From assembly GCF_057098645.1 (NCBI RefSeq), contig NZ_CM169472.1: a stretch of DNA of 64,000 nucleotides. The stretch is one strand, 5' to 3'. The stretch's first letter is position 1. Every line of letters begins with the position of its first letter. This document shows, piece by piece, positions 3,001-12,000 of the stretch. Made by a program: the position numbers.

Positions 3001-6000
3001 AACGTCCCAATGGCCTGGATTATAAATCTCATTATCTTAATTGCAACGGGGTCCAGCCGTGGTTATAATTCGTTCGTTGGAACACGATGTTGCACAGGCT
3101 GTGGTGTTAGGCCTGAAAATAGTAAATAAAAGAACCTGCCTCACCAGCAGGTTTTTTTATTTACTGTGATCTGCTTTCCAGATATTTTTCGCTCAAACAA
3201 CTAATGCGCCAAACATTTATTGCGCGTAAAATATCGTTTATTTCATTAATACATTTCAGGGATGAATATATGTCACCGCAGAATAATCATCTGCAGCGTC
3301 CGCCTGCTGCTGTGTTATACGCCGATGAACTGGCAAAATTAAAACAAAATGATAACGCACCTTGCCCGCCCGGTTGGCAGTTAAGTTTGCCTGCGGCCCG
3401 TGCTTTTATCCTTGGCGACGAAGCGCAAAATATCAGCCGTAAAGTGGTGATTAGCCCCTCCGCTGTCGAACGTATGTTAGTCACTCTTGCTACCGGCCGC
3501 GGTTTGATGTTGGTGGGGGAACCGGGTACCGCAAAATCTCTTCTTTCTGAATTACTGGCAACCGCTATTAGCGGCGATGCCGGGTTAACCATCCAGGGCG
3601 GGGCATCTACCACCGAAGATCAAATCAAGTATGGCTGGAACTACGCCCTGCTTATCAATCATGGTCCGTCAACGGAAGCGCTGGTCCCTGCCCCGCTTTA
3701 TCAGGGAATGCGCGACGGCAAAATCGTCCGTTTCGAAGAGATAACGCGTACACCGCTGGAAGTGCAGGACTGTCTGTTAGGTATGCTTTCTGACAGGGTG
3801 ATGACGGTGCCGGAACTCACTGGTGAAGCCAGTCAGCTCTATGCGCGAGAAGGCTTTAATATTATTGCCACTGCCAATACCCGCGATCGCGGCGTCAATG
3901 AAATGAGTGCTGCGCTAAAGCGTCGCTTCGATTTTGAAACGGTTTTTCCGATTATGGATTTCGCCCAGGAGTTGGAACTGGTCGCCAGTGCTTCGGCGCG
4001 TTTGCTGGCCCATAGCGGTATTCCGCATAAAGTGCCTGACGCGGTACTGGAATTACTGGTCCGCACCTTCCGCGATCTGCGTGCCAACGGCGAAAAGAAA
4101 ACGTCAATGGATACACTGACAGCGATTATGTCCACCGCTGAAGCCGTGAACGTGGCCCATGCTGTGGGCGTCCGCGCCTGGTTTTTAGCGAATCGCGCGG
4201 GGGAGCCTGCCGACCTGGTGGAATGTATTGCCGGAACCATCGTCAAAGATAACGAAGAAGATCGCGCGCGTCTGCGCCGTTACTTCGAACAGCGTGTCGC
4301 CACACATAAAGAAGCTCACTGGCAGGCTTATTATCAAGCCCGCCACCGCCTGCCGTGAGGAAAGATGCATGAGCGAGCCGTTAATTGTCGGCATCCGGCA
4401 TCATAGTCCGGCCTGCGCCCGGCTGGTGAAATCGTTAATCGAAAGCCAGCGGCCACGATACGTGTTGATTGAAGGCCCGGCTGATTTTAATGACCGGGTA
4501 GACGAACTGTTTTTAGCCCACCAGCTTCCGGTAGCTATTTACAGTTATTGCCAGTATCAGGACGGTGCAGCCCCCGGGCGTGGTGCCTGGACGCCATTTG
4601 CTGAATTTTCGCCGGAGTGGCAGGCGCTACAAGCCGCACGTCGCATTCAGGCACAAACTTACTTCATCGATTTGCCTTGCTGGGCGCAGAGTGAAGAAGA
4701 GGACGATTCGCCTGATACGCAAGATGAAAGCCAGGCCTTACTGCTGCGTGCCACCCGCATGGATAACAGCGATACCCTGTGGGATCACTTGTTCGAAGAT
4801 GAAAGCCAGCAAACTGCATTACCCTCTGCGCTGGCGCACTATTTTGCCCAACTGCGGGGCGACGCCTCCGGCGATGCGCTCAATCGTCAGCGCGAAGCCT
4901 TTATGGCCCGCTGGATTGGATGGGCGATGCAGCAAAATAATGGCGACGTGTTAGTTGTCTGCGGTGGCTGGCACGCTCCGGCACTGGCAAAGATGTGGCG
5001 CGAATGCCCTCAGAAAATTAACAAGCCAGAATTGCCCTCGCTGGCAGATGCCGTTACAGGTTGTTATCTCACACCCTACAGTGAAAAGCGCCTTGATGTG
5101 CTGGCAGGATACCTTTCAGGAATGCCTGCCCCGGTATGGCAAAACTGGTGCTGGCAGTGGGGCTTGCAGAAGGCCGGTGAACAACTGCTAAAAACTATCC
5201 TTACCCGTTTGCGCCAGCACAAATTGCCCGCTTCTACCGCGGATATGGCTGCCGCTCATCTGCATGCGATGGCGCTGGCACAGTTGCGCGGTCATACACT
5301 ACCGTTACGCACTGACTGGCTGGATGCCATAGCAGGCTCGCTGATTAAAGAAGCCCTGAACGCGCCGTTGCCGTGGAGCTATCGCGGCGTTATTCATCCC
5401 GATACCGATCCGATTCTGCTAACGTTGATAGACACATTAGCGGGTGACGGATTCGGTAAACTTGCCCCTTCTACGCCACAACCGCCTCTGCCAAAAGATG
5501 TCACCTGCGAACTGGAACGTACCGCAATCTCCCTTCCGGCGGAGCTTACCTTAAATCGCTTTACCCCCGATGGGCTGGCGCAAAGTCAGGTGTTACATCG
5601 GCTGGCAATACTGGAGATCCCTGGGATTGTACGCCAGCAGGGAAGTACACTGACACTTGCAGGCAACGGTGAAGAACGCTGGAAATTAACCCGCCCGCTT
5701 AGCCAGCATGCGGCATTGATTGAGGCCGCCTGTTTTGGTGCCACACTCCAGGAAGCCGCACGCAATAAATTAGAAGCCGATATGCTGGACGCGGGCGGAA
5801 TCGGCAGTATCACCACATGTCTTAGCCAGGCGGCGTTAGCGGGTCTGGCGTCCTTCAGTCAACAATTACTGGAGCAACTCACACTATTAATCGCCCAGGA
5901 AAATCAATTTGCCGAAATGGGCCAGGCGCTGGAAGTGCTTTATGCCTTATGGCGGCTGGATGAAATTAGCGGTATGCAAGGCGCGCAGATATTACAAACG

Positions 6001-9000: not shown

Positions 9001-12000
9001 AGTGCCGATGGCGAGCTGCTGTTAGCTACCCGCAACCGCTTAAGCAGCGTTGTGCCGCTGTCGCCTGATGCCTGGCAAATGTTGAGCGCGCCGTTACGCC
9101 AGCCGGGCATTGTGGCTTTGCGGGAATATTTACGCCAGCGTCCCCCCGCCTGCATACGGCCTCTTAATCAGGTCGATAACTTATTTATTCTGCCGGTCGC
9201 TGAGTGTATTTCGCTCGGTTGGGACAGCAGCCGCCAGACGCTGGATGCGCAGGTCATTAGCGGCGAAGGGGAAGATAATGTGCTGACGTTATCATTACCA
9301 GCCTCAGCCAGCGCACCTTATGCCGTTGAACGCATGGCGGCGCTTTTGCAACAAACAGACGACCCCGTGTGTCTGGTTTCTGGCTTTGTCAGTTTTGTTG
9401 AAGGGCAATTGACACTGGAACCACGGGTGATGATGACAAAAACCCGTGCCTGGGCGCTGGACGCAGAAACTACGCCTGTGGCACCGCTACCTTCTGCCAG
9501 CGTTTTGCCTGTGCCGTCTACTGCTCATCAGTTGCTGATACGCTGCCAGGCGTTACTTATTCAACTGCTCCATAACGGCTGGCGCTATCAGGAACAGAGT
9601 GCTATTGGTCAGGCAGAGTTGCTGGCGAATGACCTCACCGCGGTGGGTTTTTATCGGCTGGCACATGTGTTGGGACAATTTCGTAATACAGAAAGCGAGG
9701 CACGGGTAGAAGCAATGAATAACGGTGTTTTGCTTTGCGAACAATTATTCCCCATGCTTCAGCAACAAGGATGAAATAGTGCTTTTTACTAAGAGTTCTA
9801 CTCCAGTTCCGGACTGCTCACGCCACGGTATTAGGCATATCCTATATAGCCCCTGGTGAGAGTCACCAGTTCCTTGATTAAATAAAATGGAGTTTTACAT
9901 GAAGGCTTTCAATAAGCTGTTTTCCCTCGTTGTTGCATCTGTTCTGGTTTTCTCTCTTGCTGGCTGCGGTGACAAAGAAGAATCGAAGAAATTCAGCGCC
10001 AATCTGAACGGCACTGAAATTGCCATTACCTATGTCTACAAAGGTGACAAGGTGCTTAAGCAATCTTCTGAAACCAAAATTCAATTTGCCTCCATTGGTG
10101 CAACCACCAAAGAAGATGCTGCCAAGACACTTGAGCCGTTAAGCGCCAAATACAAAAACATCGCGGGTGTTGAAGAAAAATTAACCTATACCGATACCTA
10201 CGCGCAGGAAAACGTGACTATCGATATGGAAAAAGTGGATTTTAAAGCCCTGCAGGGTATTTCAGGAATCAACGTTTCTGCTGAAGATGCCAAAAAAGGT
10301 ATCACTATGGCGCAAATGGAACTGGTGATGAAAGCCGCTGGTTTTAAAGAAGTGAAATAATCGGTTGGCGGTCATGCTCTAAACATGACCGCCAATTTTT
10401 TAGCCTTTTTTCACATGCTGGCGCGCTGCCAGTCCACGCAGAAAATAACGTAAAAATTGATCGCCGCATTCGCGGAAGTTTTTATGATCCGGTGCGCGCA
10501 TCATCGCTGTAATTTCCGGCATCGAAACGCGGAACTGCTGTTCGGTGAGGATAGCCAGAATGTCATCGGTTTTCAGCGAAAACGCGATGCGTAATTTTTT
10601 CAGCACGATGTTGTTATTAATGCGACGTTCCGGCTCCAGTGCCGGAGCAGACTCATCCTTGCCGCGTTTTTCATAAATCAGGCCATTGAGGAATGACGAC
10701 AAAACAATGTCCGGACAACGCTGAAAACCCTCTTCGTCTTCTTTACGTAGCCAGACGGCGATCTGTTCCGCGGTGACTTCGACATTACCCAGCGCCAGAA
10801 TACGCACCAGGTCATTATTATTGGCTTTCAAAATGTAGCGCACGCTGCGCAGAATATCGTTACTTAGCATGAGGCCTTCAGGTGTTGATGAGGCAAAAAG
10901 CCATTTTAGCAGTCTTTTACAGGCCAATCGCCTCTTTTAAGCTTTTCAGATAACGGCGGCTGACCGGCACGGTTAAGCCATTACGCAAAATCAACTCGGC
11001 CTGGCCGTTATCTTCCAGACGAATCTCCTGTAAATGCGCGAGGTTAACCAGATACTGACGATGGCAGCGCAGTAGTGGTGTACGACTTTCCAGGGTACGT
11101 AATGTCAATTCGGTAAAGCCCTCTTTCCCTTCGTGGCTGGTAACGTAGACACCGCTCATCCGACTGCTGACAAATGCCACATCTTTCATTTGCAGCAAAT
11201 AAATCCGACTATGCCCCGTACAAGGGATAAATTTCAGCGCCTGTTGATTTTCCGGTAACAGCGAAACATCCTGCTTGCTGCGCTCCTGACGCAATCGCGC
11301 CAGCGTTTTCTCCAGTCGCGCTTCATCAATTGGCTTCAGCAGATAATCAAAGGCATGTTCTTCAAAGGCTTTAATTGCGTATTCGTCAAACGCAGTGAGA
11401 AAAACAATATACGGGCGATGTTCCGGGTCAAGCATCCCCACCATTTCCAGACCACTGATGCGCGGCATCTGGATATCGAGAAACAGCACATCCGGGCGCA
11501 GTTTATGCACCGCGCCGATCCCTTCCACGGCGTTTGAACACTCTCCAACGATTTCAATATCGCTCTGCTCCTGCAAAAATACACGCAGGTTCTCCCGTGC
11601 TAACGGTTCATCATCGACAATTAAGACTTTAATCATGCCTCGTCCCTCCATGGTAGTCGTAACGTTATTCGGGTGTAACTATCAGGCTCACAGGCGACGC
11701 TTATTCCATAGTCATCGCCAAACCGTTCACGTAAACGCTTATCCACCAGATTCATCCCCAGCCCACTGGCATTGGTTACCGGTTGATACAAACCGGCATT
11801 GTCTTCGATCTCCAGCATCAAATGTTGCCCCTCACGTCGGGCGCTGATTGCCACTCGCCCTGTATCCAGCAGTTGTGATGTCCCATGTTTAATGGCGTTT
11901 TCCACTATCGGTTGCAGGGTAAACGCGGGCAATTGCTGCTGGGATAATTCTTGCGAAATAGCAATGTTGACCTGCAACCGCGACTGGAAGCGCGCCTTTT

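Follow-up and report, generated by a model that had tools for sequence, protein, structure and literature searches.

The yehLMPQ operon of Escherichia coli as the conserved core of a candidate MoxR-vWA remodelling system

The operon and its four products

The yehLMPQ genes were analysed in a stretch of 64,000 nucleotides from Escherichia coli (NCBI RefSeq assembly GCF_057098645.1, contig NZ_CM169472.1), referred to at its full length as the window. Over its first 14 kb it matches O145 strains at 99.9% identity, and the RefSeq annotation of a near-identical O145 genome transfers to it at a constant offset. This mapping, together with a listing of open reading frames (ORFs), places four genes on the plus strand: yehL (3270-4358, 362 amino acids), yehM (4369-6648, 759 amino acids), yehP (6641-7777, 378 amino acids) and yehQ (7774-9774, 666 amino acids in its full-length form). 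A gap of 10 bp separates yehL from yehM, whereas yehM and yehP overlap by 8 bp and yehP and yehQ by 4 bp. The first-pass annotation had proposed four overlapping or adjacent genes at 3270-9774, an interval whose ends coincide with the yehL start and the yehQ stop, and its four domain calls (a MoxR-type AAA+ ATPase, a large unknown protein, a vWA protein with a metal ion-dependent adhesion site, or MIDAS, and a SWIM protein) are all upheld by Pfam matches and motifs. The locus itself has long been known and its genes have been catalogued for decades; what is new is the gene composition. The cluster had also been called functionally uncharacterised, and this still holds, as a published functional assignment was looked for and not found in the searchable full-text literature. 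Queries there by gene name, DUF number and domain combination returned incidental mentions only (H-NS silencing, a +1 frameshift-prone site and genome announcements). Our overall reading, to which we give slightly less than an even chance, is that yehLMPQ specifies the conserved part of a self-contained machine, of the MoxR-vWA remodelling type, whose work is connected with nucleic acid or with damage to DNA. The composition of the module, its intact motifs and its conserved linkage are the parts of this picture that were directly observed.

Judged by its sequence, YehL is an AAA+ ATPase of the MoxR class whose catalytic motifs are intact, and it would be the motor of the system. It matches Pfam AAA_5 (E 1.6e-34), and its AAA+ core includes a Walker A motif (GEPGTAKS, residues 83-90, positions 3516-3539), a Walker B-like motif in which Glu-Glu replaces Asp-Glu (VRFEE, residues 153-157, positions 3726-3740), a sensor-1 residue and arginine fingers. 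Among 79 orthologues from other phyla, seven of the eight Walker A residues are at least 97% conserved, with E84 falling between 90% and 97%, and the same level of at least 97% is reached by E156, E157, N203 and R218/R219. Similarity to the MoxR-specific Pfam models AAA_3 and bpMoxR lies below their thresholds (E 0.0012 each), and placement in the MoxR family is suggested instead by a PDB match to MoxR 2r44 (E 5.8e-4) and by a published classification. According to PMC3893208, which cites Snider and Houry 2006, YehL gives its name to one of seven MoxR subfamilies and is one of two MoxR proteins in E. coli. No reported function was found for the MoxR subfamily that YehL typifies.

In the PDB, YehL is closest to the AAA modules of Midasin/Rea1 (E 7e-10), which are likewise of the AAA_5 type. 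Rea1, like the proposed yehLMPQ machine, pairs an AAA ring with a client-gripping MIDAS. However, Rea1 is a single chain of ~4700-4900 residues with six fused AAA modules, whereas YehL and YehP are separate proteins accompanied by Tiki-like, SWIM and DUF4132 proteins that Rea1 lacks. RavA-ViaA, the other MoxR-vWA pair of E. coli, shares the organism and the general architecture, but belongs to another MoxR subfamily and forms an operon of only two genes; it depends on RpoS and has Nuo subunits of respiratory complex I as interaction partners (PMC3893208). The first-pass statement that MoxR-vWA pairs act in general as chaperone or remodelling systems is supported.

YehP, the presumed adaptor of this motor, matches the Pfam family VWA_CoxE (E 2.3e-72, 243.5 bits against a cut-off of 26.4). 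The DxSxS element of its MIDAS can be read directly from the sequence as DQSGS (residues 222-226, codons at 7304-7318), and the complete MIDAS (D222, S224, S226, T281 and D307) is conserved at each position in at least 97% of 76 orthologues. Some predicted gene products join DUF5682, the family of YehM, and VWA_CoxE in single polypeptides of 1122-1180 amino acids, which fall into three separate clusters at 50% identity. Such fusions suggest that YehM and YehP are in physical contact.

The large unknown protein of the first-pass annotation, YehM, does belong to a family of that kind, Pfam DUF5682 (E 2.4e-98), which comprises 2252 cluster representatives at E ≤ 1e-3. It is not featureless, however, since its first ~260 residues (positions 4369-5148) are predicted to adopt a hydrolase-like fold. 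The AlphaFold2 model is confident (pLDDT, the predicted local distance difference test, 93.6; pTM, the predicted template modelling score, 0.90), its best structural match is the haem-binding protein ChaN, and the N-terminal domain was found to share the fold of the Tiki/TraB/ChaN/erythromycin-esterase superfamily. An alignment of 92 members with 28-64% identity leaves R10, H11, E35, H51, E83, D101, R175, M179, G199 and H202 invariant. In the model, strand 1 leads into the motif G8-x-x-H11, strand 2 terminates at E35 and the strand at 194-199 leads into G199-x-x-H202; G8 is a majority residue only, whereas H11, E35, G199 and H202 do not vary. The overall pattern, GxxH(11)...E35...RExxM(175-179)...GGxH(202), is what we take to be the signature of the Tiki/TraB/PrgY/ChaN/erythromycin-esterase proteins. 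H11, E35 and H202 form a candidate catalytic site.

Sequence models of the Tiki/TraB/ChaN superfamily do not reach their thresholds with YehM, nor did a profile search of PDB sequences find any member. A sub-threshold similarity to Cofac_haem_bdg (E 0.07-0.2) was seen at the matching position in three of nine members, and profile matches to ATP synthase subunit b and to designed helical bundles were dismissed as chance hits. The resemblance at the YehM N-terminus is hence one of predicted fold and motif, not of Pfam family membership. YehM differs from the superfamily by ~500 extra residues, largely helical, and by its coupling to an AAA+/vWA pair. These residues form a middle region of mixed α/β structure and, after it, a C-terminal region that is entirely helical, with weaker structural matches to AAA+-type ATPases and α-solenoid proteins. 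No sequence relative of YehM, YehP, YehQ or YehI (the DUF4132 protein discussed below) was detectable in the PDB.

YehQ is a SWIM protein, as had been proposed (Pfam SWIM, E 1.6e-7, 31.1 bits against a cut-off of 19.6), but it contains more than one SWIM finger. The CxCxnCxH signature occurs twice, at residues 70-80 and 166-176. The first finger (C70, C72, C78 and H80; positions 7981-8013) is invariant in 56 sequences from several phyla, whereas the second, SWIM-like finger (C166-D-C168...C174-x-H176; positions 8269-8301) represents a majority consensus in which only D167 is invariant among the same 56 sequences. A confident predicted model (pLDDT 92.8, pTM 0.90) arranges the protein as two SWIM fingers, a helical bundle, a beta-rich region resembling an oligonucleotide/oligosaccharide-binding (OB) fold and a C-terminal helical bundle. 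The top Foldseek matches are tandem OB-fold DNA binders, led by RPA70 DBD-A/B (probability 0.99), with further matches to baculovirus LEF-3, the MNDA HIN domain, archaeal RPA, CST and POT1; none of them reaches E 1e-3. This OB-fold signal is consistent but weak, and we infer its placement in the beta-rich region, residues ~331-561 (positions 8764-9456), where it would correspond to a tandem-OB arrangement.

Two variable sites were noted in yehQ. A segment of 43 codons (residues 286-328, positions 8629-8757), recognized from an alignment and from the lengths of database clusters, has 'AGE' at both ends; it is deleted in some alleles of E. coli and Shigella sonnei (623/624 amino acids) and tandemly duplicated in others (709 amino acids), and these changes look like slippage between short direct repeats. 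In K-12-type strains, a G-to-T change at codon 615 (window position 9616) creates a stop that yields the annotated YehQ of 614 amino acids. In the window this codon is intact.

Conservation, loss and spread of the module

Some E. coli strains carry an operon 100% identical to that of the window, and 5202 of the 5426 complete E. coli genomes (96%) contain 80% or more of its length at 93-100% identity. The same genes flank it in all five E. coli genomes inspected. Comparison with a 93%-identical allele gives ratios of nonsynonymous to synonymous substitution rates (dN/dS) of 0.04 for yehL, 0.08 for yehM, 0.05 for yehP and 0.12 for yehQ, at dS values of 0.15-0.40, which makes yehQ, with its indel alleles, the fastest-evolving of the four. 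All four genes are under purifying selection, and the low ratios therefore mark them as real, selected genes rather than chance ORFs. The G+C content is 54-57% over the operon and 43-50% in the flanks, which fits an old horizontal acquisition.

Several E. coli lineages have nevertheless lost individual components. The window opens within yehI, which encodes a protein of the DUF4132 family; the 3' two-thirds of this gene (positions 1-2585, plus strand) form a pseudogene, annotated as 'frameshifted' in RefSeq for the near-identical O145 genome. Relative to the intact yehI of a K-12-type strain, the window has two deletions, of one base at ~1311 and of 13 bases at ~1385, with a stop at 1343; the 13-base deletion is absent from the near-identical O145 genome and is the sole difference between the two over this stretch. 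A molR-like gene farther upstream has an internal stop in that O145 genome. Both DUF4132 genes are dead in the genome of the window, so that the machine is probably incomplete there. K-12 has a molR pseudogene in addition to the nonsense mutation that truncates the C-terminus of YehQ, and in O157:H7 JEONG-1266 (2900-5179 of the locus stretch) the annotation gives yehM as a pseudogene interrupted by a stop. By comparison, E. coli 2017-02-2CC has three intact tandem DUF4132 genes (1265, 1249 and 1214 amino acids) along with intact yehK, yehL, yehM, yehP and yehQ. Because K-12, O157:H7 and the O145-like genome are each damaged in a different part, the standard strains may for this reason have failed to reveal a role.

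Losses of this kind raise the question of whether the operon is a cryptic, decaying remnant that has no present function in E. coli. At least one component is a pseudogene in O145 and the window, in K-12 and in O157:H7, the operon is subject to H-NS silencing, and in a successful sublineage of ST131 the DUF4132 region (metG/DUF4132/yeh) carries an insertion of the blaCTX-M-15 transposon TnMB1860 (PMC9334617). Against this stand the dN/dS values, which are low for every gene over an appreciable dS, the intact catalytic motifs, the existence of strains in which every gene is intact, and the finding that full-length YehM (759 amino acids) and YehQ (666/667 amino acids) form the commonest database clusters. 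We therefore regard decay as very improbable.

Outside E. coli, the module was traced by scanning one genome per species for DUF5682 relatives, and the best 80 loci, among at least 560 stretches with a match, come from Enterobacterales, Burkholderiales, Xanthomonadales, Myxococcota and Actinomycetota. Module loci accordingly span the Gamma- and Betaproteobacteria, Myxococcota and Actinomycetota. Matches to YehL were present in 83 of 84 loci, to YehP in 81, to YehQ in 79 and to the DUF4132 protein YehI in 75. The gene yehP, two genes downstream of yehL in the window, is found together with yehL in 81 of the 84. The main gene order, all on one strand, is DUF4132 (one to five tandem copies)-L-M-P-Q, with DUF4132 directly before L-M-P-Q in 75 of 84 loci, and the same order appears in precomputed Pfam calls on contigs with distant homologues and on a Bacillus mycoides plasmid. 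Roughly one in two DUF4132 genes starts with a WGR domain, and a WGR-DUF4132 protein occurs in 51 of the 75 loci. In the E. coli cluster, the first such DUF4132/WGR gene is molR, which lies outside the window. The first-pass designation of yehL-M-P-Q as a core cluster is thus appropriate for the shared part, with DUF4132 as the usual fifth component upstream of it. The core common to these loci consists of L, M, P and a SWIM protein, and a large, variable fifth protein completes the system. For genes that remain among the unexplained ones of the best-studied bacterium, this amounts to a testable parts list of five proteins including DUF4132, in which WGR, SWIM and the OB-like region are the candidate nucleic-acid-binding modules.

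The neighbourhood of the module was also searched for a further partner. All-against-all clustering of 398 flanking ORFs gave no family present in more than seven loci, so that a conserved sixth partner or client gene was rejected, and the lack of any recurrent flanking family therefore means that there is no adjacent client enzyme. This bears on the possibility that yehLMPQ encodes a maturation chaperone for a metalloenzyme or cofactor, comparable to CoxD-CoxE (which serves the Cu-Mo site of CO dehydrogenase), NorQ-NorD or CobS-CobT, with the MolR name as a hint of the client. Most characterised MoxR-vWA pairs do serve the maturation of cofactors or complexes, and these pairs, like CbbQ-CbbO, resemble yehLMPQ in consisting of a motor and a MIDAS adaptor encoded by two genes. 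In addition, YehP falls in the VWA_CoxE family, YehP and YehL have weak NCBIfam similarity to cobaltochelatase and GvpN, respectively, and ChaN, the best structural match of YehM, binds haem. However, CoxD-CoxE, NorQ-NorD, CbbQ-CbbO and CobS-CobT are encoded beside their client enzymes, as such chaperones normally are, whereas no enzyme gene is conserved beside the module in ~80 species. We also know of no DUF5682, SWIM or DUF4132/WGR partners for these four pairs, and WGR, SWIM and OB-like domains are without precedent in cofactor insertion. The name MolR ('molybdate metabolism regulator') derives from a genetic study of 1990, and in Deinococcus the molybdate genes are not co-regulated with WGR/DUF4132 genes (PMC8533742). 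A role in cofactor insertion is improbable on this evidence. What sets yehLMPQ apart from every characterised MoxR-vWA system is the combination of three partner proteins with the absence of an adjacent client gene.

The same distribution could reflect an anti-phage or anti-mobile-element system, in which DUF4132/WGR and SWIM-OB proteins would sense invading nucleic acid, the MoxR-vWA pair would act as a switch and the YehM hydrolase would be the effector. Patchy spread over distant phyla with strict synteny implies transfer as a unit, the number of DUF4132 paralogues varies from one to five, single genes are often lost in E. coli lineages, and YehQ evolves fastest and has indel alleles. The raised G+C content of the operon relative to its flanks, the H-NS silencing, the type I toxin-antitoxin locus in the adjacent spacer of some strains and the frequent inclusion of defence systems in DNA-damage regulons point the same way. 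On the other hand, YehK, YehL, YehM, YehP, YehQ and YehR match none of 5027 PADLOC models, and in ~65 other species the module is flanked by common housekeeping genes and hardly ever by defence genes. Among 72,556 plasmid records, only 44 contain DUF5682, and most of these are megaplasmids or chromosomes under a wrong label; of 50,697 phage records, one contains it. The operon is also close to core in E. coli, with constant flanking genes in the five genomes inspected, and lacks a recognizable toxic effector domain. Membership in a catalogued defence system was rejected on the basis of the missing PADLOC matches, the absence of defence-island flanks and the rarity on plasmids and phages, and a defence function in general appears unlikely.

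Regulation and a possible role in DNA damage

The preferred reading, in which remodelling is tied to nucleic acid or to DNA damage, draws in part on how the gene set is regulated. The gene molR has been listed among those with a known SOS (LexA) box (PMC6590174), and in a K-12-type genome we find the LexA box AACTGGATAAAATTACAGGG 8 bp before the molR ATG (852-871 of the locus stretch); its core is also present in the O145 locus. A box scan of the yehK-yehL spacer found no LexA box there. Two LexA-box matches with one mismatch each lie inside yehL, and the count over the whole locus is no higher than expected by chance. Scans of ~80 species with exact, relaxed, actinobacterial and xanthomonad boxes gave convincing sites only in Escherichia, and conserved SOS control of the module was rejected. 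In E. coli, yehL and yehM are upregulated in an hns/stpA mutant and an intergenic H-NS site lies nearby (PMC3686432).

A second connection to DNA damage comes from Deinococcus. In D. deserti, a five-gene operon that begins with a SWIM gene and includes a MoxR ATPase (Deide_18730-Deide_18690) is radiation-induced (PMC4007540). A plasmid-borne variant in D. taeanensis (LAJ19_RS15970-15995) has the order SWIM-DUF5691-AAA-(78 amino acids)-DUF5682-VWA, in which the AAA, DUF5682 and VWA proteins are clear orthologues of YehL, YehM and YehP (E 6e-75, 7e-37 and 1e-65) and the SWIM protein (466 amino acids) is a shorter, distant relative of YehQ. The Deinococcus operon thus resembles yehLMPQ in having YehL, YehM and YehP orthologues and a SWIM protein, but differs in that the SWIM gene comes first, DUF5691 stands in for DUF4132, and a site resembling the radiation/desiccation response motif (RDRM) takes the place of the LexA box of E. 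coli molR. This RDRM-like site lies 20 bp before the first (SWIM) gene of the D. taeanensis operon and is the only one in 19.5 kb, where 0.01 would be expected. The idea that DUF5691 is a diverged DUF4132 was dropped, as the DUF4132 profile does not detect it. In D. radiodurans, DUF4132 and WGR genes have been reported as derepressed on depletion of DdrO (PMC8533742). Two unrelated DNA-damage regulators therefore touch this gene set in two phyla.

The proposed mechanism would work as follows. By analogy with Rea1/Midasin, CbbQ-CbbO, NorQ-NorD and CoxD-CoxE, a YehL ring would use ATP to pull on a client held through the MIDAS of YehP. YehM would provide a scaffold and would probably also hydrolyse the client in a metal-dependent manner, as its predicted fold and invariant residues suggest. 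YehQ, through its SWIM and OB-like regions, and the WGR-DUF4132 proteins may anchor the machine to nucleic acid or gate its activity there, with damaged or single-stranded DNA as the likeliest target; domain content and regulation are what point to this coupling. The system would act after DNA damage and would otherwise be silenced by H-NS in E. coli.

A remodeller with this architecture could instead act on a protein or ribonucleoprotein client unrelated to DNA, for example in ribosome or envelope assembly as for Rea1 or RavA-ViaA, with SWIM, WGR and OB-like domains serving as protein-protein modules. SWIM, OB-like and helical domains could equally bind protein, and the closest solved relatives of YehL are Midasin modules. 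The molR promoter is also activated by BglJ-RcsB, a regulator linked to envelope stress (PMC3950696), and PMC2790909 cites a different swarming phenotype for a yehP knockout. Such a role is rather unlikely, however, as it leaves the convergent DNA-damage regulation in Escherichia and Deinococcus, and the frequent presence of WGR, unexplained.

The idea of a DNA-linked remodelling machine can be taken a step further. YehI/MolR-YehLMPQ and the Deinococcus SWIM-DUF5691 variant might together represent an undescribed DNA-damage-response machine that extends from enterobacteria to Deinococcus, in which WGR and SWIM/OB-like domains recognize damaged or single-stranded DNA, the MoxR-vWA motor strips or remodels protein bound there, and the Tiki-like hydrolase processes it. 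If true, this would be a bacterial counterpart of the ATP-driven extraction of proteins from chromatin, although we consider this more specific proposal doubtful.

Several observations weigh against a link to DNA damage, or against the mechanism as proposed. Among ~80 species, a LexA-type box upstream of the module is present in Escherichia only. Even there, some 8 kb separate the molR box from yehL downstream, with two pseudogenes and the terminator of a small RNA gene (orz, described below) in between, so that SOS control of yehLMPQ itself would be a possibility at most. The D. deserti operon is equated with that of D. taeanensis by description only, and the Deinococcus variant, to judge from its sequence, has a shorter SWIM protein (466 amino acids) and carries DUF5691 in place of DUF4132, to which it shows no detectable relationship. 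The Tiki-like assignment of YehM depends on a predicted model and on motifs, while sequence profiles remain below every family threshold. Lastly, E. coli lineages can do without one part or another: molR, yehI, yehM in O157:H7, the YehQ C-terminus in K-12.

Other features of the locus

Upstream of the operon, the small gene yehK (2646-2963, plus strand), annotated as 'protein YehK', falls outside the conserved module. It has no match in Pfam, NCBIfam or PADLOC, and among 84 loci it was seen only at that of E. coli, making it Escherichia-restricted.

Within yehP, codons ~287-292 (positions 7499-7514, plus strand) contain the +1 frameshift-prone cassette GTGGAGTATGGTCGGC, an exact match to a published sequence that promotes +1 frameshifting in reporter constructs (PMC2790909). 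Single substitutions change the cassette in O157:H7 and in strain 2017-02-2CC, and the Klebsiella, Erwinia and Serratia loci have no close match to it (best 3-5 mismatches). It is therefore probably not a conserved programmed site; that interpretation was rejected, and the cassette is probably incidental.

The spacer between yehK and yehL harbours a gene for the OrzO-P type I antitoxin small RNA (3083-3158, plus strand), which matches Rfam RF02083 over its full length (99.9 bits against a gathering score of 60). A promoter-like site that matches the consensus (TTGCAA-17-TATAAT, 3041-3069, plus strand) is placed to drive this RNA, and a stem scan located a terminator-like stem-loop with a T-run at its end (3133-3160, plus strand). 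In E. coli O157:H7 the same spacer holds the zor-orz locus, with zorO/zorP, but the window differs in lacking the toxin gene, as no ZorO/ZorP toxin ORF (29 amino acids) was found anywhere in the 64 kb. The spacer of 306 bp in the window compares with 1240 bp for O157:H7 and 1390 bp for strain 2017-02-2CC; the two longer versions each carry two zor toxin ORFs of 29 amino acids, and two orz copies were found in O157:H7. The spacer of the window is identical to that of a K-12-type strain, and its orz gene is therefore an orphan antitoxin left after loss of the toxins. It is a neighbour of the yehLMPQ operon and not a part of it.

Downstream of the operon, the near-identical O145 genome has prophage-type genes directly after btsS (window ~13500-14100 and downstream; 19553-26013 of the O145 locus), in place of which the K-12-type and 2017-02-2CC genomes carry mlrA (yehV). 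These prophage-type genes include a DinI-like gene, nleA, remnants of OspG-family kinases and tail-fibre genes, and the DinI-like gene is preceded, at a distance of 31 bp, by an exact CTGT-N8-ACAG box of the LexA type. The other Rfam matches in the window, all on the minus strand, are an ALIL pseudoknot (62626-62742), the small RNA STnc100 (48167-48333) and a tRNA (49189-49261), and these are unrelated to yehLMPQ.

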